From the IMG/VR virus record IMGVR_UViG_3300020471_000096, positions 1 through 59,923 of that record: a DNA stretch of 59,923 nt; one strand, written 5' to 3'. Source of the stretch: a virus (taxonomy: Duplodnaviria > Caudoviricetes). How positions within the stretch are numbered: the stretch's first letter is position 1; each line of letters begins with the position of its first letter. The translations under genes were made by a program, and so were the position numbers. The notes under the pieces were generated by a model, which made no database searches, had not been told where the DNA came from, and saw only the letters and a program-made list of their open reading frames with translations. Shown piece by piece: positions 4,422 through 37,320 of this stretch.

Positions 4422-5021
4422 TTAAGCTGCGCCACTAGTTGATGTAAGCTGATGATAATTGAATTTACAAACCAAGATTGGGAAGTTACTTCCTTTTTCA
4501 TCACCTAAGTCACCGCCTAGATAGTCTATTATTTTAATGCCGTCACCTGCATTTGTAGATATCTCAGAAGCGTCTAATGAAACACGGGATATACCTAATG
4601 TTGTATTAGCGGTTCCTTGAACTACAGGTGCGTTTTTACCGTATATGTCTCTTTCGTTTGAGAAAGATCCATCAGCTTGAATAGTAAATAATACGTTAGG
4701 ATCATCTACTACATAAGCCATTGCATCAGATGCTACGGTGCTTGCTGGAAAATGCTGACTAAAAGTCAACTGATTAGTATTTGGATCTGTAAATCGGCAA
4801 CCCATGAAAATACCACATAAGTCAGTTGCTGAACCATCCATAGTGCCTGTCATTTTTGCAATAGTAGTTGCATTACTGGCATTTACTAGCTGAACGATAT
4901 CGCCCTTAACTATAGCTGTGCTTTCACCAGATTTAATAGGATATTGTCTAAATACCTCTAATGAACCTGTGTCGAATCTACCGATAGGGTTTAATCCAAA
5001 TGGTGCTGCTGTGCTGCTCAT
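4422..5021 (-). CDS. Putative head decoration/minor capsid protein
   Basis: APFGLNP N-terminus; position immediately upstream of MCP; GAGG RBS. Confidence 0.7.
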   Translation of the reverse strand: MSSTAAPFGLNPIGRFDTGSLEVFRQYPIKSGESTAIVKGDIVQLVNASNATTIAKMTGTMDGSATDLCGIFMGCRFTDPNTNQLTFSQHFPASTVASDAMAYVVDDPNVLFTIQADGSFSNERDIYGKNAPVVQGTANTTLGISRVSLDASEISTNAGDGIKIIDYLGGDLGDEKGSNFPILVCKFNYHQLTSTSGAA

Positions 5022-5053
5022 TTTTACCTCTTCGGTTAATTTGTTAATATTTA

Positions 5054-5488
5054 TTACGAAGTGCGTGTGCTTTTCTCTGGTCTGAGTACTGGCATACGGG
5101 GGTCGGATTCCTTCATGTAACTATTGTCAACAGCCTGCATCTGTGATGATGCTTGGTTTTGCTGATAGTCCCTTCTGGCATCCATGTTTTCTGTTGAGTT
5201 CTTGCAAAGTAACAATCCTCCAACCTCTACATTACCTTTGAATTTGGAATCAACATCAGACATGATCTTCAACTCTGGATGATCTTCTAACTTTACAGGC
5301 TCCCAGCCTTCACGAAATTTTGATGACACATTTGTCATATCAGACTGTCCAAGGGCAGATGTACGAATCCATCGGAACTCTACACCCTCTTGTGGCGTTG
5401 GATCAGGTAAAGCTGACGGTCTTTGCCATGTTGCCTTACGTTCTGATTTTTCTCTTGTGTCTTCTGTGCGTGAATCTCTATTAGCCAT
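5054..5488 (-). CDS. Conserved head-module hypothetical protein
   Basis: FRWIR...REGWEPV...VGGLLL motifs; lies between scaffold and capsid genes. Confidence 0.8.
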   Translation of the reverse strand: MANRDSRTEDTREKSERKATWQRPSALPDPTPQEGVEFRWIRTSALGQSDMTNVSSKFREGWEPVKLEDHPELKIMSDVDSKFKGNVEVGGLLLCKNSTENMDARRDYQQNQASSQMQAVDNSYMKESDPRMPVLRPEKSTRTS

Positions 5489-27655: not shown

Positions 27656-27912
27656 AACTAGCAGACGGATACGAAGATGCTTTTGTTGGCACTACCATAA
27701 GTGCCTTCAGTAGGAAACAAGTGGCATTATATGATTATGATAAATGTATAATGATACTCATGAATGATAACAATTGGGATGAAGACGAGGCTATAGAGTG
27801 GTTTAACTTTAACACAATAGGATCTTGGGTAGGAGAAGATACTCCCATATTTGTTAATATGCATAAACTAGATGTCATAAACGATTTCTTGGAAGACGAT
27901 GAAGAAACTTAA
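27652..27912 (+). CDS. Conserved small acidic phage protein
   Basis: ADGYEDAFVG...EAIEWFNFNTIGSWVGEDTP. Confidence 0.8.
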   Translation: MKLADGYEDAFVGTTISAFSRKQVALYDYDKCIMILMNDNNWDEDEAIEWFNFNTIGSWVGEDTPIFVNMHKLDVINDFLEDDEET

Positions 27913-28357
27913 AACCATACCAATGAGTATTCAAGAAGCTAATGAGTTCGTTGCGAACTTTCACAGACATAGTAAACCAACTCAAGGTGGAAAATTTTCT
28001 ATTGGAGCTTCTTTAGATGAATTGCATGGTGTAGCAATTGTGGGTAGACCAATTGCAAGAAGATTAGATGATGGATTTACAGCAGAGGTATTGCGTGTGT
28101 GCGTAAAACCAAATGCCCCAAAAAATACTTGTTCGTTTTTGTATGGAAGATGTTGGAGAATATGGCAACAAATGGGTGGATTAAAAATGATTACATATAC
28201 ATTGCAAAAAGAATCTGGTGCTAGTCTTCGTGGTGTAGGTTGGAAGATAATGGGAGAAACTGGTGGTTGGAAAGAAAACAAAGGTTGGACTACTAGACCG
28301 AATAGAGATTGGTTGCCAATTCATGGACAACTTAAATTTAGATGGGAGATAAAATGA
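27899..28357 (+). CDS. XF1762-family (Mom/GNAT-like) protein
   Basis: ANEFVANFHRH, GVAIVGRPIAR, AEVLR, CSFLYG, ITYT...ESGASLR motifs. Confidence 0.75.
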   Translation: MKKLKTIPMSIQEANEFVANFHRHSKPTQGGKFSIGASLDELHGVAIVGRPIARRLDDGFTAEVLRVCVKPNAPKNTCSFLYGRCWRIWQQMGGLKMITYTLQKESGASLRGVGWKIMGETGGWKENKGWTTRPNRDWLPIHGQLKFRWEIK

Positions 28358-28695: not shown

Positions 28696-31600
28696 TCATG
28701 CAGTTTGTCTTATGCCCACACTTCTCATTAACTGAATACCTTTTCTCATGATCTCTTGTATTCGTTCTCTACGTAATTTAATAAGTTTTTGTCTGACATC
28801 ATCTGACAGTCGAAGATTTCGTTCTAACTCCTTGATCTGTCTCAACAATCTGTTTCTTGCGTTGTCTAAAGCCTTAAATCTACCATATATGCGTACCTCG
28901 TCATCGTACCTAGCGATAAGTTTACGTATAGTTTCGGGATCACCTCTTCTTCTTGCTAAGTCAATTCTAGAAAATATCGTGTATAGCTCTTTTCTCTTTT
29001 CTAAATAATTTTGTGTATCTACTCTATCTGACGGCTGTTTTATTACTTTTCTAACAAATGGTATTCTGTTTGGTAAGTTACCCTCAAAGTCTCCGGAAGC
29101 TATAGCCGGTATGACATCAAAAACTAGATTAGCTGATCTACCTATAAAAGCACCAGCACCTCCTATTACATACTCATAAAAATATTCTATCGTGTCAGGA
29201 GATATGTCAATCAAACCACTTTCTACTTCATCTCCAAATGTTAAATCATTTATAGTTTGTACTATAAATTTAGATACAGCACCGGTATTTGTCCAATGTG
29301 TATAAGCATCAGGAACATTCGTTGTTGAGTACATAGGCGTTTCTTTGTATATAGGATCGTTTCTGTAATTTTTATTAATATACATTTCTACTGCCGGTTT
29401 AAAAGCAGTTGGTATTACGTATGTTTCAAAGTTCTCTATTGCACCAAAAGGAGATAATGTTTCCATAGTTGTGTCAAAAATACTATTTGCTGCTTGACCA
29501 AAAGTATATTCGCCTCGTGTGTAGCGGCTAAGAGATCTGCCTAAATTAAATGGCATATTAAGTCCATAAGCCAATGGTATTGCTATAAACTTATCTTCCA
29601 TTAAACCAAAAGATGGAAATATTAAATTATGCTCTAAATCATATTCATTTAATTTATCATAAGTTATTGGATCATCATCTTCTGACGGATCGTCTAAAAA
29701 TGCTAATAGTTGATCTTGCAAAAATCCATAAACTATTATGCCACCTAATATTTTTCTTACCTTTTTAGATTTATAAGCCGCATTGTATATAGCCATACTA
29801 CCTTGCAAGGATGCGTTATAAAATAAATACAAAGAGTTCATAAATACTTTATCTTCACCACCTTTGGCAAAGTTTACCGTTACGTTCCTAGCTGCTTCGG
29901 CAGCCCTAGCATCAGTAAATCCTCTTTTTTTCAAATTAGTAAACGTGGCAACACGTACACCATTCTCAATAACAGTATTGTAATCTTCTAAAAACTGTAA
30001 AAGACTTCTTCCTTTTTTTCTAAAGAATCCATTTCTTTTAAATCCTAATGTTTTAGCTTCACTAATATCCATTAACAACTTACTAAGATTCTCCATTTGA
30101 TCTTGCACAGTTCCCATTTGGTTAGTGGCGTTCTTGCCACCTGCCTTTACAAATTTTAAATATTCTTGTGACCAATAACTAGATGTGTCTGGCGTTCTTT
30201 TGCCAAAAGGATTTGCACCAACACCAAAAACTTTTCTAATCCCATTTATAGCACCAGCAACATCTCTAGTTATCTCTTTTGTAATACCTTCTGCATCATG
30301 TTGTTGTATATTTACTAAAGCTGTTTCCAAGTCTTTTGCAAAGTTTGGAATAACGAAAGCTGGGTTGTAAGAAGTATTAACATTAGATAAAAATCTATTT
30401 AATTTAGATAAAGTTCTAAATGCAACATGATGTGTTTTAGGTTCGTAATGATGCTTGAAAGATCTGGACATACTTTCTCTGTAAAAGTTTACGTAAACTT
30501 GTTGACCATTCTCTTTTATTGCAATCTGATGTGGGTCCATAGGTTCTGCTTCAGTTGTTATTTCTGCAAAATTTTGCTGTAAATCTGTAGCCAACGCATC
30601 GTTTATAGCCGTGCTACCATCAGGTTGTTCTTCTTGACCTCTTAATAATCTTAAAAGACTCTGACCTACTTTATTTCTTTCTGATCTATCTATCGCTCTT
30701 TGGTTTTGGGCAATAACTGATGCAAAAATATTTTCTGCATACTTAATACCACGGCCTCTAGCTACTTTGTCCTCTCTTCCTAAAGCGCCAAAGTAATTAG
30801 TTGTTTTACGTAATGTATTTTGTCTATCCTCTTTCATCTCAACATCAATGTCTAAATCACCACGTAAAGGTACATAGTATTTAAATCTAGCACCCTCTTG
30901 ATGCTCATCGTATTCTGCTTTATCTATTAATCCACTTTCATATCTAATATTATTAGTACTATTAACTATTCTTCTAGTTTGTTTATTGATAAATTGAAAA
31001 ATATCTTTATTTGATTGATCTAAACTGTCAAACCAATCTAATATTACATCAGCTTCAGCCTTTGATAATCCTGAACCATTAGGTCTGGCATAGCGATTTG
31101 CTATATCTATATTTCTCTCTTTTGCATGCATAGCGTAAAGATATATATCTGTTAAAGCTAACTTAACATCTATTGAAGAATCTATAGTTTTGTTAACTAA
31201 TCCCTCTCCTTGCTCTTGCGCAGCGGCTCTAGCAGAGGCATTTTTTAATTCTGTTAATTTTTCATCCGAAACTTTTATTTTTTTAATTTCTTCAATAGTT
31301 GGTTTAACTATAGTTTCTTCTAAATCAGTTAATTTATCTCCTATAATACCTGAAGAATTTACTTCTCTTAGATAAGGGTCCATAGCATCAGCTATTGTGT
31401 AGCCTTTATCACGCAACTCATCCATCATTGCGCCAACAGGTTGAAAAGAGTCTTGATATTTTTGCACTATCTTTTGTGCGGCCTGCGCTCTAGTGTTGCC
31501 AAATAAAAATGACTCAGGCACTACTTTAAATGCTTTAGCCAAAACCCCTGCTAAATTATTATATCTTATATTTAACTGAGCCTGTGCAATGTCACGATCA

Positions 31601-34600
31601 TTTTGCTGTGCCTGTCTTTGTCTCTCACTAGAAGGTGTTGCTCTTATTCTTGAGCGTCTAGTCTCAGGTGTTCCGGTAGAGTCTCTTCCAATTCCGCTGT
31701 CATTTCTGGTATTCCTTCCGGATACATAAGGTCTAGGTAGTTCTGTCTCGTAACTGGCATCCCTACTGAATTGAGGTATTGTATTAGGGGGTCTTGCCCA
31801 ACTTGGTTCCGCAAATCCATCTGGCGTAGCATTTATTATCTCCTGTCTTGTTTGATCTAAAGTTAATCCACCATCTACATATGATCTCCATATGTTATTT
31901 ATTCTTTCAACATTTTGTGTTTCATTTTTAAATGTATCAGGAAACAAACCTCTTATAGCTTCCCATGTTATTGATTGCATTTGCCTTGGCAAAATACCTC
32001 TTTGTTCTGCGGCTCTTGCATAGGCATCATATATTAATCCATACATGCCTCTAACACCTGTAACAGAGGAATTAGGTATGATTCCGTATAGGTCCGCTCT
32101 ACCCTTCGCAGTATATAATCCAAAATTTTGATCTACTTCAAAAGATTTACCACTTAAAGGTTTAAAAAATGCTACTGCAACCGCATGCGTATCTATTGTA
32201 GAATGACCGTCTGGAGACATAGGCGTAATTATATTATTAAAAAAACTTCTAACTTTATGCCTGTCACCAAGTAATACAGATACTTGTTGTAAAGAATTGT
32301 CACCACGCAACTCTAATAACTGCATAGCTTTATCTATAGTATTATTAGAACCCCAACCTGTGCCTTTAGGATCGCCTTGAACACCAAATATGGATTCATA
32401 ATTTGATAGCGTCTTTTTTCCTAACTGTGCTTTCGATGGTTTTTTTCTTGCGTAATCTAAAAATTCACCCTCTGGAGTTATTACTCTATGACCTCTGTCA
32501 TTATATGTTTCATCAAATATTCTAACCCAAAGAGCTTTGTGAAAAGAAAACTGTAAACTATCTAGGCTTGTAGAATCTCTATTAGGATTAGATATGTGCT
32601 TTATAGCAGCTTGTATTGCTTTATTTTTACCGTATATCCTCTTTGCTGTTTTTACCATCTCTGGTGTAAAGTCTTTATCACTATGATTTCTAGCGATATC
32701 CATAACCCTTTCAGCTAATGAAACATTCATATACCAATCTTTTTGTGGTGACTGCACTGCCATAACCGCAGCAACTACTTCAGGAGGATAATTATACGTT
32801 TTTGAAAACTTATCTACTATGTTTCTTGCGCCATCGTACCAAAGAGAAGATCTTTCTCTAATTGTAGGATCTATGGAATCATGAACAAATAATATGTTAT
32901 TTGTCATAGCCTGAATGTGATCTTCTATAATTTCTTCATTTGAAAAGTTTACGTAACGTTTTGCATTTTCTGATAAATTATATTTTTTAATTATATCAGC
33001 AGCATTTTTTGCAAGTTTAGAATCATTCTTTATAAGATCTCCATTTATAAATAACAACTCAGCAGATGGATCTGCCTCTCTTGCTTTTGCGGTAGGAAAT
33101 CTTGTGCTAACTGTATGTTCTTGTCCCACAACTCTGGTTCTAGATCTCATGGTTCTTTTTGCATCAACACCACGTTTTTGGTTTATACCATCTTTATATG
33201 CTTGATCATACTTCTTAGCTTGATACGTCTCTGGCACTCTCAACTCATAAAACATAGCCGCCATAGTTCCACGGAAAGGATCATTTATCCAATAACCCGT
33301 AGCGCCAGACTCTTTAATCATCCTTTCTTTAGCAGTAGTTATGTAATTAACACGACCAGTTGGGTCTTTGATATCAGGTCTACTTTTATCTAATTCTGCA
33401 TTTGCTGCATCGTTGAATTTTTCTGGGTCTGCTTCCCAATCATACATACCTTCATACGGTACATCCAATTCGTATATATTATCTCCTAAGTTTTGTTCCG
33501 GATTATAACCATTAGGATCAGATATATTTACAGCAAAATAGCTTCTAGCAGGATATCCCTCAAAAGTTCTTCTCCTCTCTTCTCCCCGCATAAATAAATT
33601 AGACCTTTGTTTTTCTGGGTCTATGCTTTGGAGGCCCTCGATAGGAGAGAAGTGTGTTAGCTTGACTGTCCTTTGCGGAGATAACTCAGGTTCCCTCCTT
33701 TCTTTTGTCGATTCAATCGTGCTTCGTATAACGCTGCGTCTTCCATCTCTTCTTGCATCTCTTCCTCTGTCAGTTGCATCATCTCTTGTTTCACTAAATC
33801 GTTCATCTTCTTGAATTGCTCTTTCATCTACTGCTCCCTCTATATTATTAGCTAATCCCTCTGTTTGCACAAAATCAGACAGTAAAGTTATCTTTTGATC
33901 TGCGTATATTGTTTCTTCAGCTTTATTTTTGCTATTTCTATTATGGTCTCCAACAGCATCACTGTAGTTAAGCCATGAGTTTTGTCCTCTTGTTTCTGTG
34001 GTCATAGCTCTAGCGGCTAACGGGGTATACATACGGCTATGTGCCTGCCAAGCATTTTCTTCACCTCTAGCTGAAAAAGTAGCACCCTCTAATGCGTGAC
34101 CAAAGTAATCATGAACTATTCTAAATAAATCATTATATCGAGCATCACGACCATCAATTATCTCACCAGTTGTCTGTAATAATGGGTTCTCTGCTATATC
34201 TTGGTCCGTTATAGCATCACTGCCAAAACCATCGTCTGTAGCAAAAACCCACATATGATTATTATTGATATCTTCTAATAAATCTTTAGATGCTCTTGGG
34301 TATGGGTTTGCTTGATTTGGCTTAATAAATTCTATTTGTATTCCTGTATCTTTTATAAATAACCATTGATTAAATGTTTCATCAGCCATAGCTTTGTATG
34401 CTTGTATTACCTCTGGATTAGTTGGGTCATGCTTTGCTTCGTCAAAGTCTTTAGCTATTCTTCTAGCTAACTCTTCATTTACTTGCACATACCTATCAGG
34501 CCTTGTATTAGGCATACCTATCGATTGTAAATATCTAGACTTAACAACATGCGCTATAGGTAAGGGTCCTATAGAACCTCTGTGTAAATCTGGTAATCTA

Positions 34601-37320
34601 TCAATAATTATACGTGATCTACGTGGCTCAGTAACAGTTTCAGGATCATCCGGCTTTCTATCTCTTCTACCTATCTGCTTTTCTATCTCTGTTGTGCCTA
34701 TATTTTCAAAAATTTGTTCTGTCTGTGTAAAACCTTGATCTGCATGCGAACCAAATATAGCTTTGAAAAAAGCAACAATTCTATCAAAAAGACTCTTTGG
34801 TTTACCGCCAAATTTAAGTTTACCATCAGTATAGTCTCTATACATCTCTGCAATAGCTTCTTCTACTATTTGTTCATTTGGCATACCATCACGTATATAA
34901 GCATGAGTAGCTCTTTCATAATATGTATAACTTCTTGTTGTATCTGTGCCTTTTGATCTTTTGACATATTTTCTTGTCATTGCAGCTTTTTTTAATATGT
35001 CATATTCCTGATCTGTAAAAACATTTAAACTTTTTAATGCATGAATAATTTCATGATTCATGACACTTCCTAACTTTGCCTGCAACTCAGCATCAGTCAT
35101 ATTAGGATCGTATATTTCCATTGCTAACGCTATGATACGTTTGCCATCAGGTGAAACTTCTTGTATGCCTTCAGTTATACCTATGTCTTGTCCTCTTGAA
35201 AGGTCTTCTGTTAACTGTGCAGCATCTAATAATGGTCTACCTTCTAACCTTACATCAGTTAATCCTATTCTATTTAGCTCTGCTCGTAGAGCATCAAGAA
35301 CACGCTTTTGTTTTAATACATATTCTGGAGTTTCTTTTGTTTTAGTAGCTTGATCAAAGACCTTTTTAGGCGCAAGTGCAGGAGCTATTCTTCTAGCTTG
35401 TATTGTTTGTTGACCTTGCACAGCCTGATTAGCTTTATTTTCTAAATTAAAGGCCTCTAATTGTATATCACTATATCTTTTTTGTAATAAATCTAATTGT
35501 TGACTGTTAGTTTCAAGATTAACTGGATCATTACGAAATATGTTTCTTTGCTTTCTTAGTCTATCATCAGCTTCTCTTATTTGCCTTGCTCTTTCAGATA
35601 AAGCTCTTGCCTGTTCAATAAAATCTAAATTTACATCTACCTGATTTCTAGGTGAATATCTACCTTTTCCATCATACTGCAATAAACCAGATCCTAACAT
35701 TTGAGCCAATGCACCATCAGCAATATCATCTGGCATTTTTTCTTTGTATAGTTTTTGATATACTCTTTTTGCTGCAGCTCTATTAATTATTTTTTGTTTT
35801 AATAGATTTTCTTGAAATTTTATTACTTGTTCTTTTGTTTCTTGTGTGATGCGCTCTGCTTCTAATTCAGCATCTGATATTTCCTCTAATGCAGGCACTT
35901 TATTTAAAGTAGGTTTTTGTAAAATTTTTTCTCTTAAAGATGCTTCAGGGCCAACAACTTCTTCTAATTCTTGTATTGTTACGGGATCATCTACAGGTAT
36001 GCCTTTTTTTAATTCTATTCTTTGTTTACGTATTTTAAACGCTTCATCTTCTGGCAAACTCTCTAATTTCACAGGATTATATGGAGTTGTAGCCTCTCTT
36101 GCAGCCTGTAATGTATCTTCAGTATTTTTTCTTTTTTGATTTTCTTGGGCATCAACTGCTGATTGATTGTCTATATCAGTAACAGGATCGCCAGATGGTA
36201 GGATAATTGGAGCATCGGGTGCAGGCAATCCAAGGCCCGGACCCTCTATTAGTTTTACTTGTTTATCTTCTTGGGTTTTTAAATAATCTTTTGCATTTTG
36301 AGCCATACTAGCATTTTCTCTAGCAGCTTCATCTGCATCATTATCTAATTCTTTTTGTTTCTTTTCGTATTGATTTACTCTTCTGCCTCTAATACTGTCT
36401 AATATTAAATTTAAAGCAAAACCTGCGCCACCACCATAAACGGCATCATCATATGCACTTTGTCCAACTTGAACATCTGGGTTGTAAATATTTTTTTCAG
36501 TTAAATCTTGAAGTATACCTGCAACTAACTCTTGAGTACCCTCTCCAATACCAACACCAATGCTTCTTTTTATTCTGCCGCCTATAGTTTTTACTGCTTC
36601 ATCTATATCTTTTTTGTCTACTTTTTTTAAAATTTTTAAAGAAGCTCCTAAGCTCTTGCTTAACGCAGCAAAAGGTATAGCCTCTGATGTACCAATTAAA
36701 GCGCTTAATAATACAGCATCTGCTTTTTGCGAACCGTCTATAACACCGCCATTTTCTAAAAAATTAGCAATCCTATTCATCTGATCTTGTGATGTTAAAG
36801 CCGCACCCTGTGTTGCAACAGTGCCTAAACCTAAATATGAAGCAATTTTAGGGGCAGCGCCTGCAACTGCCAAACCACTTTTAACAGCCCATCCACCTGC
36901 TAAAAAAGAGGCAAGAGACCCACCTGCTTGACCAAATTTACTATAAGGACTTTCATTAAAATCAAAAGTATCTGCTAAAGCTCTACTAGCGCCTTTAGAA
37001 AAATTTTGTGCAGCTTCTCCTAATCCTGTCTCACCGGGTGCTACATCGAAGCCTAATCTTTGCCCAACGCCTTCACCTATTGAGGCTATACCACCGGGTA
37101 AATCTGTAAAACCTCTTATAAAACTTCCAACAAAACTTTTAGGGACATCAATAAGACTCCCTTCTTCTTCCGCTGTTTCAGGCGCTTCTAATAAAACACC
37201 ATCTTCTCTAGCAATATATTTTTGTATAAATTGGTCTTCTGCTGCAGTGGGCCTGTTACCAGCTATCAATATAGGGTATGTTTTACCAGTTAAGTTACTT
37301 TTTACATTAATTGTACCCAT
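28696..37320 (-). CDS. 2874-aa large polyvalent internal virion (ejection) protein
   Basis: Last gene of the structural operon; Gly/Ala-rich N-terminus, HEIIH and HDYFGH motifs, LPD38-like C-terminus. Confidence 0.8.
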   Translation of the reverse strand: MGTINVKSNLTGKTYPILIAGNRPTAAEDQFIQKYIAREDGVLLEAPETAEEEGSLIDVPKSFVGSFIRGFTDLPGGIASIGEGVGQRLGFDVAPGETGLGEAAQNFSKGASRALADTFDFNESPYSKFGQAGGSLASFLAGGWAVKSGLAVAGAAPKIASYLGLGTVATQGAALTSQDQMNRIANFLENGGVIDGSQKADAVLLSALIGTSEAIPFAALSKSLGASLKILKKVDKKDIDEAVKTIGGRIKRSIGVGIGEGTQELVAGILQDLTEKNIYNPDVQVGQSAYDDAVYGGGAGFALNLILDSIRGRRVNQYEKKQKELDNDADEAARENASMAQNAKDYLKTQEDKQVKLIEGPGLGLPAPDAPIILPSGDPVTDIDNQSAVDAQENQKRKNTEDTLQAAREATTPYNPVKLESLPEDEAFKIRKQRIELKKGIPVDDPVTIQELEEVVGPEASLREKILQKPTLNKVPALEEISDAELEAERITQETKEQVIKFQENLLKQKIINRAAAKRVYQKLYKEKMPDDIADGALAQMLGSGLLQYDGKGRYSPRNQVDVNLDFIEQARALSERARQIREADDRLRKQRNIFRNDPVNLETNSQQLDLLQKRYSDIQLEAFNLENKANQAVQGQQTIQARRIAPALAPKKVFDQATKTKETPEYVLKQKRVLDALRAELNRIGLTDVRLEGRPLLDAAQLTEDLSRGQDIGITEGIQEVSPDGKRIIALAMEIYDPNMTDAELQAKLGSVMNHEIIHALKSLNVFTDQEYDILKKAAMTRKYVKRSKGTDTTRSYTYYERATHAYIRDGMPNEQIVEEAIAEMYRDYTDGKLKFGGKPKSLFDRIVAFFKAIFGSHADQGFTQTEQIFENIGTTEIEKQIGRRDRKPDDPETVTEPRRSRIIIDRLPDLHRGSIGPLPIAHVVKSRYLQSIGMPNTRPDRYVQVNEELARRIAKDFDEAKHDPTNPEVIQAYKAMADETFNQWLFIKDTGIQIEFIKPNQANPYPRASKDLLEDINNNHMWVFATDDGFGSDAITDQDIAENPLLQTTGEIIDGRDARYNDLFRIVHDYFGHALEGATFSARGEENAWQAHSRMYTPLAARAMTTETRGQNSWLNYSDAVGDHNRNSKNKAEETIYADQKITLLSDFVQTEGLANNIEGAVDERAIQEDERFSETRDDATDRGRDARRDGRRSVIRSTIESTKERREPELSPQRTVKLTHFSPIEGLQSIDPEKQRSNLFMRGEERRRTFEGYPARSYFAVNISDPNGYNPEQNLGDNIYELDVPYEGMYDWEADPEKFNDAANAELDKSRPDIKDPTGRVNYITTAKERMIKESGATGYWINDPFRGTMAAMFYELRVPETYQAKKYDQAYKDGINQKRGVDAKRTMRSRTRVVGQEHTVSTRFPTAKAREADPSAELLFINGDLIKNDSKLAKNAADIIKKYNLSENAKRYVNFSNEEIIEDHIQAMTNNILFVHDSIDPTIRERSSLWYDGARNIVDKFSKTYNYPPEVVAAVMAVQSPQKDWYMNVSLAERVMDIARNHSDKDFTPEMVKTAKRIYGKNKAIQAAIKHISNPNRDSTSLDSLQFSFHKALWVRIFDETYNDRGHRVITPEGEFLDYARKKPSKAQLGKKTLSNYESIFGVQGDPKGTGWGSNNTIDKAMQLLELRGDNSLQQVSVLLGDRHKVRSFFNNIITPMSPDGHSTIDTHAVAVAFFKPLSGKSFEVDQNFGLYTAKGRADLYGIIPNSSVTGVRGMYGLIYDAYARAAEQRGILPRQMQSITWEAIRGLFPDTFKNETQNVERINNIWRSYVDGGLTLDQTRQEIINATPDGFAEPSWARPPNTIPQFSRDASYETELPRPYVSGRNTRNDSGIGRDSTGTPETRRSRIRATPSSERQRQAQQNDRDIAQAQLNIRYNNLAGVLAKAFKVVPESFLFGNTRAQAAQKIVQKYQDSFQPVGAMMDELRDKGYTIADAMDPYLREVNSSGIIGDKLTDLEETIVKPTIEEIKKIKVSDEKLTELKNASARAAAQEQGEGLVNKTIDSSIDVKLALTDIYLYAMHAKERNIDIANRYARPNGSGLSKAEADVILDWFDSLDQSNKDIFQFINKQTRRIVNSTNNIRYESGLIDKAEYDEHQEGARFKYYVPLRGDLDIDVEMKEDRQNTLRKTTNYFGALGREDKVARGRGIKYAENIFASVIAQNQRAIDRSERNKVGQSLLRLLRGQEEQPDGSTAINDALATDLQQNFAEITTEAEPMDPHQIAIKENGQQVYVNFYRESMSRSFKHHYEPKTHHVAFRTLSKLNRFLSNVNTSYNPAFVIPNFAKDLETALVNIQQHDAEGITKEITRDVAGAINGIRKVFGVGANPFGKRTPDTSSYWSQEYLKFVKAGGKNATNQMGTVQDQMENLSKLLMDISEAKTLGFKRNGFFRKKGRSLLQFLEDYNTVIENGVRVATFTNLKKRGFTDARAAEAARNVTVNFAKGGEDKVFMNSLYLFYNASLQGSMAIYNAAYKSKKVRKILGGIIVYGFLQDQLLAFLDDPSEDDDPITYDKLNEYDLEHNLIFPSFGLMEDKFIAIPLAYGLNMPFNLGRSLSRYTRGEYTFGQAANSIFDTTMETLSPFGAIENFETYVIPTAFKPAVEMYINKNYRNDPIYKETPMYSTTNVPDAYTHWTNTGAVSKFIVQTINDLTFGDEVESGLIDISPDTIEYFYEYVIGGAGAFIGRSANLVFDVIPAIASGDFEGNLPNRIPFVRKVIKQPSDRVDTQNYLEKRKELYTIFSRIDLARRRGDPETIRKLIARYDDEVRIYGRFKALDNARNRLLRQIKELERNLRLSDDVRQKLIKLRRERIQEIMRKGIQLMRSVGIRQTA
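30483..30500. repeat. Dispersed TTACGTAA palindrome, copy 7 (intragenic)
   Basis: AAAAGTTTACGTAAACTT, with a perfect 16-bp core. Confidence 0.75.
31644..31832 (-). CDS. Overprinted 62-aa acidic ORF nested in the giant gene
   Basis: AGGAG 7 nt before ATG; globular-looking sequence while the main frame is a low-complexity linker. Confidence 0.65.
   Translation of the reverse strand: MLRQMDLRNQVGQDPLIQYLNSVGMPVTRQNYLDLMYPEGIPEMTAELEETLPEHLRLDAQE
32943..32962. repeat. Dispersed TTACGTAA palindrome, copy 8 (intragenic)
   Basis: AAAAGTTTACGTAACGTTTT. Confidence 0.7.
33657..33827 (-). CDS. Overprinted 56-aa ORF nested in the giant gene
   Basis: GAGGGAG 6 nt before ATG; MKEQFKKMNDLVKQEMMQLTEEEMQEEMEDAALYEARLNRQKKGGNLSYLRKGQSS. 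Confidence 0.55.
   Translation of the reverse strand: MKEQFKKMNDLVKQEMMQLTEEEMQEEMEDAALYEARLNRQKKGGNLSYLRKGQSS

Follow-up and report, generated by a model that had tools for sequence, protein, structure and literature searches.

Evidence for a conserved gene embedded in a giant phage polyvalent-protein gene, encoding a probable binding partner and possible inhibitor of the DUF7178 domain

The virus record IMGVR_UViG_3300020471_000096 (Duplodnaviria; Caudoviricetes), a complete record of 59,923 bp that is referred to here as the window, contains on its minus strand a giant open reading frame (ORF) of 2874 codons, inside which a small ORF, nested-1, is found in a different frame. Nested-1 (31644..31832, -; 62 codons plus stop) is read in the +1 frame of the giant ORF and begins at the end of the region encoding DUF7178, an internal domain that is conserved across an alignment of 26 such domains. 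Comparison with related viruses indicates that nested-1 is almost certainly a genuine gene, shared by many marine phages and translated separately from an internal ribosome-binding site. Its product is predicted, with reasonable confidence, to bind the DUF7178 domain, and it may possibly act as an inhibitor of that domain. The explanation that accounts best for the observations as a whole, namely a separately translated partner gene whose product masks DUF7178, is offered tentatively.

Results

The embedded reading frame and its conservation

The nested-1 start codon lies at 31832-31830 and the stop codon at 31646-31644 (-). The offset within the giant ORF is 5488, which leaves a remainder of 1 and corresponds to the +1 frame. 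A Shine-Dalgarno-like AGGAG (31840..31844, -) stands 7 nt 5' of the ATG, within main-frame codons for R-Q-E. A first-pass annotation, made from the DNA alone, had described an overprinted ORF here, and its coordinates, strand, AGGAG-7 nt-ATG signal and alternative frame were all verified; the peptide quoted in that annotation corresponds to nested-1 residues 14-53. The start falls at giant residue 1830, 14 codons ahead of the conserved end of DUF7178 (...EPSW, residue 1843), and the main-frame linker across nested-1 (giant residues 1844-1892; 31645..31791, -) is open, with unconstrained amino acids.

Nested-1 is the longest +1-frame ORF of the giant gene (62 codons; the next has 56), but its length is not significant, as +1 ORFs of at least 62 codons arose in 27% of 2000 synonymous-codon shuffles. 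The linker is T-poor and hence stop-poor, and an estimate from ORF counts gives about 0.8 such open stretches as the expectation for the +1 frame. On these grounds nested-1 could be a chance open frame and no gene at all. That explanation is scarcely credible in the face of the open frame in relatives, the frame-specific substitution rates, the reversal of codon-position diversity, a family of 1,820 sequence clusters and a confidently predicted fold, each of which is described below.

A scan of IMG/VR yielded 79 related loci, 35 of which span the nested-1 segment. The +1 frame is open in all 35, although main-frame identity ranges between 34% and 91%; every one of them keeps the ATG, and the stop codon is at the same site in nearly all. 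An interruption of the frame in relatives, which had been named in advance as the sign that would speak against a gene, was not seen. The ratio of nonsynonymous to synonymous substitution rates (dN/dS) was estimated as the median Nei-Gojobori value over pairs of the 28 unique sequences. Within the overlap it was 0.195 for the nested frame and 1.46 for the main frame, and a second alignment gave 0.20 and 1.35, respectively. The main frame of the flanks returned 0.17 upstream and 0.21 downstream, and control +1 frames returned 1.1-1.2; in the overlap, the main frame therefore resembles a non-coding frame. These values agree with the earlier suggestions that an overprinted gene begins where the domain ends and that the main frame degenerates there into a linker.

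The distribution of diversity over codon positions was also examined. In the flanks, diversity by main-frame codon position is greater at position 3 (about 0.4) than at position 1, whereas inside nested-1 position 1 (0.28-0.40) exceeds position 3 (0.07-0.14), as expected if the +1 frame is being read. Among 483 windows covering giant residues 441-2870, a strong reversal of this kind was found only at nested-1 and at the second embedded ORF considered below. When the record was compared with L026, which is among the most distant of the giant-gene relatives, the same bases were found to encode nested peptides of 71% identity and main-frame peptides of 31% identity. In stand-alone homologues of nested-1 the parts that overlap no other gene have dN/dS values of 0.07-0.61, so that the other frame does not account for conservation of the small protein. 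An open frame in diverged relatives, purifying selection in the alternative frame and dedicated start signals, the features by which an embedded gene can be recognised at the level of sequence, are all present, and the main frame over nested-1 behaves as an unconstrained, neutral spacer.

A second embedded reading frame

A further ORF in the +1 frame of the giant gene, nested-2 (33657..33827, -; 56 codons plus stop), is preceded at 6 nt by GAGGGAG and overlaps an R/D/E-rich linker (giant residues 1165-1221). It was first picked as a negative control for nested-1, and the gene-wide scan of 483 windows was used as the control instead. The nested-2 ORF, with a conserved ATG, is present in all 23 unique relatives, its end shifting by no more than 3 codons in seven of them, and in most of them GAAGGAG or GAGGGAG stands 6-7 nt before the ATG. 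Codon-position diversity is reversed (position 1, 0.35; position 3, 0.09-0.18), and dN/dS is 0.30 in the nested frame and 0.91 in the main frame. The linker follows another conserved domain (giant residues 973-1125, phrog_3170). Three called homologues were found, none of them obviously stand-alone. With the caveat that this linker is A/G-rich and has few stop codons in any frame, the sequence comparisons suggest that nested-2 is probably a second embedded gene.

Arrangement of the small gene in related loci

Homologues were sought over the 79 loci using tblastn and a hidden Markov model (HMM) of the peptide, and linkage was assessed from the DUF7178 side. In 72 of the loci a homologous small ORF was found where the DUF7178 coding region ends, co-oriented with it and directly 3' of the effector-like domain, as in effector-immunity pairs; two loci end before the site and five lack the ORF. 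The 33 members that were aligned are 52-78 residues long when counted from the ATG. Nearly all loci, including those in which the small gene stands alone and the upstream protein differs, have a GGAG- or GAGG-type motif 5-10 nt 5' of the ATG.

Among the 73 loci with a near-complete DUF7178 domain, the small gene is nested in 43, partly overlapping in 6, stand-alone in 19 and absent from 5, so that versions standing alone downstream of the same domain do exist. In the stand-alone form the DUF7178 gene stops just after ...GGINPPSW, and the small gene, in the +1 frame, opens with an ATG 23-62 nt before this stop codon; L048, L065 and L066 differ in that the small gene shares the frame of the upstream gene and comes just after its stop codon. 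The gene order is then DUF7178 protein (638-787 residues), small gene, and a large 'internal virion protein' or amidase. On a tree of the domain the nested state requires at least three changes, the tree being a quick, unrooted one that leaves the direction, fusion or fission, undecided.

The first-pass annotation had proposed that an effector and its inhibitor were inserted together into a polyprotein. This history is doubtful: the stand-alone small gene lies between two separate virion-protein genes, and the giant genes are one continuous frame. Fusion of the flanking genes across the small gene would fit such a continuous frame. However, the C-terminal part of the giant protein had no blastp match to the proteins encoded downstream of stand-alone small genes, and a simple history in which the same two genes were fused is therefore not supported.

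The five loci without the small gene (L052, L053, L054, L056 and L062, all from IMG/VR) form a clade, which provides a natural 'knock-out' set for comparison. In a separate case, Rhodobacteraceae phage LS06-2018-MD07 (L082, OP947163.1), a giant ORF annotated as 'methyltransferase' spans the start of the record and contains DUF7178; in the +1 frame at 4959-5201 the HMM also finds a weak homologue (E-value 3e-4) of the small gene, which the record leaves unannotated.

The small protein and its family

The nested-1 protein has a mass of 7.2 kDa, an isoelectric point (pI) of 4.3 and a charge of -7.4. Its AlphaFold model is compact and helical, with a mean predicted local distance difference test (pLDDT) score of 79.7 that rises to 84-92 over residues 12-55, in keeping with the compact acidic helical protein that had been anticipated from the sequence. 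Acidity is general in the family: the net charge is negative in all 33 aligned members, and the pI is 4.05-5.85 in 31 of them and 6.4 and 7.0 in the other two. Q10, G12, P26, T28, R29, Y32, E47 and P53 are near-invariant.

The protein has no credible match in Pfam or PHROGs. Over the 33 members the best Pfam hit was Agd3_C, with an E-value of 0.0036 that is far below the cut-off of that model, and a sequence-profile search of the PDB with the small protein returned nothing. Fold searches with its model gave no meaningful match (best VIA-align Z 2.8; best Foldseek E-value 2.9), and neither of the best hits is an inhibitor. One unnamed viral cluster in the ESM Atlas scored 0.83, which is a lead only.

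The family is nevertheless large. It comprises 169 clusters at 90% identity, described as 'hypothetical protein' where they are named at all, and 1,820 representatives at 50% identity (E-values up to 1e-3), mostly of 55-80 residues. In two metagenomic members (P0128 and P0133) the small domain is duplicated in tandem within the one protein, and a few longer members carry unrelated extensions.

The DUF7178 domain

DUF7178 occupies giant residues 1456-1843 (31792..32955, -; Pfam E-value 3e-24), and its AlphaFold model has a pLDDT of 80.7. It holds the WYDGAR, SPQKDW, TIDTHA and QSITW motifs of the domain that the first-pass annotation had called glycosylase-like. Across the 26 aligned domains the invariant motifs are SPQ.DW, GW.S, HK.R.F..N, TIDTHAV and MQSI.WE. 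They include K234 (..HK.R..) and D255 (..TIDTHA..), which are 21 residues apart and separated by the loop TPMSPDGHS.

The model is all-helical, and D255 is placed one residue ahead of helix 256-262. The top Foldseek match was the 8-oxoguanine glycosylase Pa-AGOG (E-value 0.12, probability 0.91). With VIA-align, which works independently of Foldseek, the top 22 of 22 matches were HhH-GPD glycosylases or the related queuine-salvage enzyme (DUF2419), over 154-221 residues and with Z-scores of 8.8-5.0, followed by unrelated proteins at 4.4 or less; for helical models, however, Z-scores below 13, a range that includes 8.8, can arise by chance. When compared by eye, K234, the Gly/Pro-rich loop and D255 resemble K120...D138 in the segment ..GRKTAN..VDTHIFRV.. 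of Escherichia coli endonuclease III (Nth), where the two residues are 18 apart. The model of DUF7178 can be aligned with structures of HhH-GPD glycosylases (Endo III/Nth, OGG, AlkA and MagIII) and DUF2419, and a Lys/Asp pair appears at similar spacing in similar motifs. The domain differs from the glycosylases in being larger (about 390 residues), in having extra variable inserts and in its lack of detectable sequence homology.

The sequence profiles did not bear out the glycosylase label. The Pfam HhH-GPD model PF00730 matched nothing in the window, alignment of DUF7178 with E. coli Nth by hhalign gave a probability of 0.1, and a sequence-profile search of the PDB with DUF7178 found no match. 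As no sequence relationship was detected, the assignment of DUF7178 to an HhH-GPD DNA-glycosylase-like fold stays a fold-level lead, derived from the structural model; at that level the label stands. A full-text literature search, supplements aside, found no paper on DUF7178.

Predicted complex between the small protein and DUF7178

Structure prediction of the two chains together gave a score of 0.65 (0.63, 0.65 and 0.73 in three runs), and the best control, in which the DUF7178 chain was swapped for an unrelated protein, scored 0.02. Among solved complexes 116 of 157 attain the 0.65 mark, and among mismatched pairs 2 of 215 do so, a calibration that is rough since custom alignments were used. 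At least 77% of contacts are common to the runs, and the partner pLDDT is at least 73.

The confident interface is formed by small-protein residues 4-52 and domain residues 70-71, 107-139, 203-212, 227, 232 and 234-235. It touches the invariant residues P70, Q71, S203 and K234, together with a lysine-rich variable helix. The model therefore supports binding, and it is likely that the small protein is a ligand of the DUF7178 domain.

The giant gene and its surroundings

The giant ORF (28696..37320, -; 8.6 kb) hosts both nested ORFs. Its product matches Pfam LPD38 (E-value 1.6e-29) as well as DUF7178, and its PHROGs matches are to families of giant proteins; it is therefore a polyvalent protein in the sense of PMC5512222. 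LPD38, a marker of phage-type polyvalent proteins, covers giant residues 2554-2731 (29128..29661, -). The gene adjoins one for a 'DNA ejection protein', and the window, a complete phage genome, includes terminase, portal, capsid, tail-fibre, holin and DNA-ejection genes. With its 2874 residues, its LPD38 domain and its position in the late/virion module, the giant protein has the characteristics of the phage polyvalent class and is probably packaged in the virion and ejected. Pfam searches with separate segments of the giant protein revealed no further domains.

An HExxH motif (..MNHEIIHALK..) is present at about giant residues 730-830, in the region 34471-35970 (-), where there is also a sub-threshold match to Peptidase_M13 (E-value 7.5e-4; 19.6 bits against a cut-off of 24.5). 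This region may be a processing metallopeptidase of the type found in polyvalent proteins, as described in the available text of PMC5512222. Beside the 3' end of the giant gene lies a Mom-like DNA modification gene (27899-28357, +; phrog_1384, 1.2e-32), which has an HNH endonuclease gene as its neighbour. A base-modified genome could bear on the substrate of a glycosylase-like domain delivered by the virion.

The window sequence, from an uncultured phage, was found repeatedly in marine metagenomes, and a DNA-level search of a phage collection produced no match.

Discussion

A model for the action of the small protein

The small gene starts within the coding region of its partner or where that region ends, and the two products would therefore be made together from the same message. 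The small protein would then form a non-covalent complex with DUF7178, at a face containing part of the invariant motifs, and mask the DNA-facing surface of the domain in the producing cell while virions are assembled, acting as a cognate, 'immunity-like' inhibitor. As a separate polypeptide, it could stay behind or be released as the giant protein undergoes packaging and ejection. What survives of the first-pass interpretation is a real and conserved partner gene beside a domain whose modelled fold is glycosylase-like, and a model supports binding; the inhibitor role is no more than possible, and the history of an inserted cassette is doubtful.

A number of observations weigh against this model, in addition to the sequence-profile results for DUF7178 given above. 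The predicted interface is mostly on a variable segment of the domain (mean column conservation 0.45, versus 0.59 elsewhere), the catalytic-like D255 is outside the confident contacts, and the predicted binding fits a chaperone or a subunit equally as well as an inhibitor. In the clade of five that lacks the small gene, the +1 frame is full of stop codons and a different tail of about 120 residues follows ...PSW; the two members of this clade that were included in the alignment nonetheless keep all of the invariant DUF7178 residues. The cultured Roseobacter phage CRP-738 also has DUF7178 and lacks the small ORF. An effector would not be expected to occur without its immunity gene, and here the candidate effector domain does so in 5 of 73 loci and in CRP-738. 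In one protein (P0131), a singleton from a single 2.6-kb contig, the C-terminus of DUF7178 is fused in frame to the small protein; a word-indexed search of longer proteins (138-2000 residues) found no in-frame fusion, although this is weak evidence. Finally, no RNA runs containing the window sequence were found. Because the small gene is missing from the clade of five and from CRP-738, the small protein is not an obligatory antidote, and the domain can exist without its partner; the variable surface of the interface and the single fused form also count against an obligatory antidote.

Alternative explanations

The main alternative is that the small protein is indeed a partner of DUF7178, and serves as an assembly chaperone, a packaging adaptor or a stable subunit, possibly co-packaged and co-ejected with the giant protein. 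The reality of the gene, its linkage to DUF7178 and the predicted binding fit this role equally well, and the locus belongs to an internal-virion/ejection-protein module, in which small assembly factors are common. An interface that is mostly on variable surface and off the invariant Asp, a clade that manages without the small gene and the existence of one fused form would also be easily accommodated. However, the small protein has been kept separate even where its neighbours are fused across it, in a class of proteins that freely fuses domains, and its strong acidity and its contacts to the invariant residues K234, P70 and Q71 fit the masking of a DNA-binding face. A chaperone or subunit is considered rather unlikely. 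An independent function is more improbable still. The protein could be a DNA mimic or a host-takeover factor directed against a host protein, with linkage to DUF7178 serving co-expression only; it resembles known DNA mimics in being small, acidic and helical, and its family of 1,820 representative clusters includes members with unrelated extensions or tandem copies. Yet its position at the end of the DUF7178 coding region has remained constant through at least three changes of architecture, and the complex prediction is specific, falling from 0.65 to 0.02 when the DUF7178 chain is swapped.

It is also conceivable that the peptide is not translated from its own start, and that a programmed +1 frameshift or read-through yields a shorter DUF7178 product with the peptide as its C-terminal extension. 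Conserved parts of both, the N-terminal part of the small ORF and the end of the domain, overlap, and the metagenomic protein with both parts fused in frame could be taken as a precedent. However, in most relatives that were inspected the ATG is immediately preceded by one or two +1-frame stop codons, and the ATG and ribosome-binding site are kept in all three architectures. In the three loci where the small gene follows the upstream stop codon in the same frame (L048, L065 and L066), a +1 shift could not serve, and the fused protein, a singleton, comes from one short contig. For these reasons frameshifting is very improbable. The preferred explanation is still the separately translated partner gene whose product masks DUF7178.

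Comparison with known systems

Nested-1 is, by the sequence evidence, an embedded partner gene, here within a polyvalent virion protein. By analogy, its genetic architecture is closest to that of the Rz/Rz1 spanins of lambda and its relatives, which occur in embedded, overlapped and separated architectures and whose embedded genes are missed by gene callers, according to the available text of PMC6139136. In both systems a small partner gene with its own start is located in the +1 frame within a larger phage gene, and the products interact, in the present case by prediction. There is no sequence or functional relation between them, as spanins are lysis proteins and the giant protein is a virion/ejection protein. 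In the available part of the spanin survey no family mixes the embedded form with other forms (PMC6139136), whereas the DUF7178-linked family displays all three architectures, and its host gene is an 8.6-kb polyvalent gene in which the overlapped frame is a neutral linker.

The functional idea appears closest to two other kinds of system, effector-immunity pairs, including those of MuF toxins, and acidic DNA-mimic inhibitors of glycosylases. Polymorphic toxin systems, including MuF, likewise have a small gene directly after the effector-like domain of a large, phage head-associated protein (PMC5576092, in the text available). The first-pass annotation had likened the present system to this class, but it is not a polymorphic (variable-tip) toxin: DUF7178 is internal and conserved, and is not a variable C-terminal tip, and the small gene overlaps it or is embedded, and is absent from one clade. 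The inhibitors Ugi, phi29 p56 and SAUGI, as described in the available text of PMC3711442 and PMC3902945, are phage-encoded acidic proteins comparable with the small protein, which is strongly acidic, in size (about 60-80 residues) and in the proposed site of action, the DNA-binding face of a glycosylase. They target the family-1 uracil-DNA glycosylase of the host, whereas the candidate target here is the phage's own HhH-GPD-like domain, and they have no similarity of fold or sequence to the small protein.

Polyvalent proteins are giant multidomain phage proteins for which packaging, and delivery at infection, have been proposed (Iyer et al. 2017, PMC5512222, in the text available), and the giant protein resembles them in its LPD38 domain and its likely metallopeptidase motif. 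The words 'overlapping', 'frameshift', 'small protein' and 'glycosylase' were absent from the available text of PMC5512222 by word search, and genes embedded in linkers are not described in that text. A search of the literature on embedded and overlapping phage genes, supplements aside, found nothing on the DUF7178 small-gene system.

Implications

Embedded genes are rarely proven and are passed over by gene callers. Here one homologous pair is found in stand-alone, overlapping and embedded forms, the last of which shows a clean switch of the selection signal from one frame to the other. DUF7178 is linked to a large and unnamed family of small proteins, with 1,820 clusters at 50% identity, and itself gains an assignment that can be tested, that of a DNA-glycosylase-like enzyme delivered along with the DNA of the phage. 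The presence of nested-2 in the same ORF suggests that the arrangement is no one-off. Should the small protein prove to be an inhibitor, it would represent a new class of glycosylase inhibitor and a new rule by which polyvalent effectors are kept harmless in the producing cell.

A broader proposal, which is doubtful as it stands, is that separately translated 'keeper' genes in inter-domain linkers silence the effector domains upstream of them until packaging, with two such genes in the giant gene described here. If this were true, gene fusion would be possible only if the fused gene read through the keeper in a different frame, so that the antidote stays detachable; the DUF7178 pair would provide the first inhibitor of an HhH-GPD-type glycosylase, and embedded inhibitors would be a general and overlooked layer of polyvalent-protein biology.

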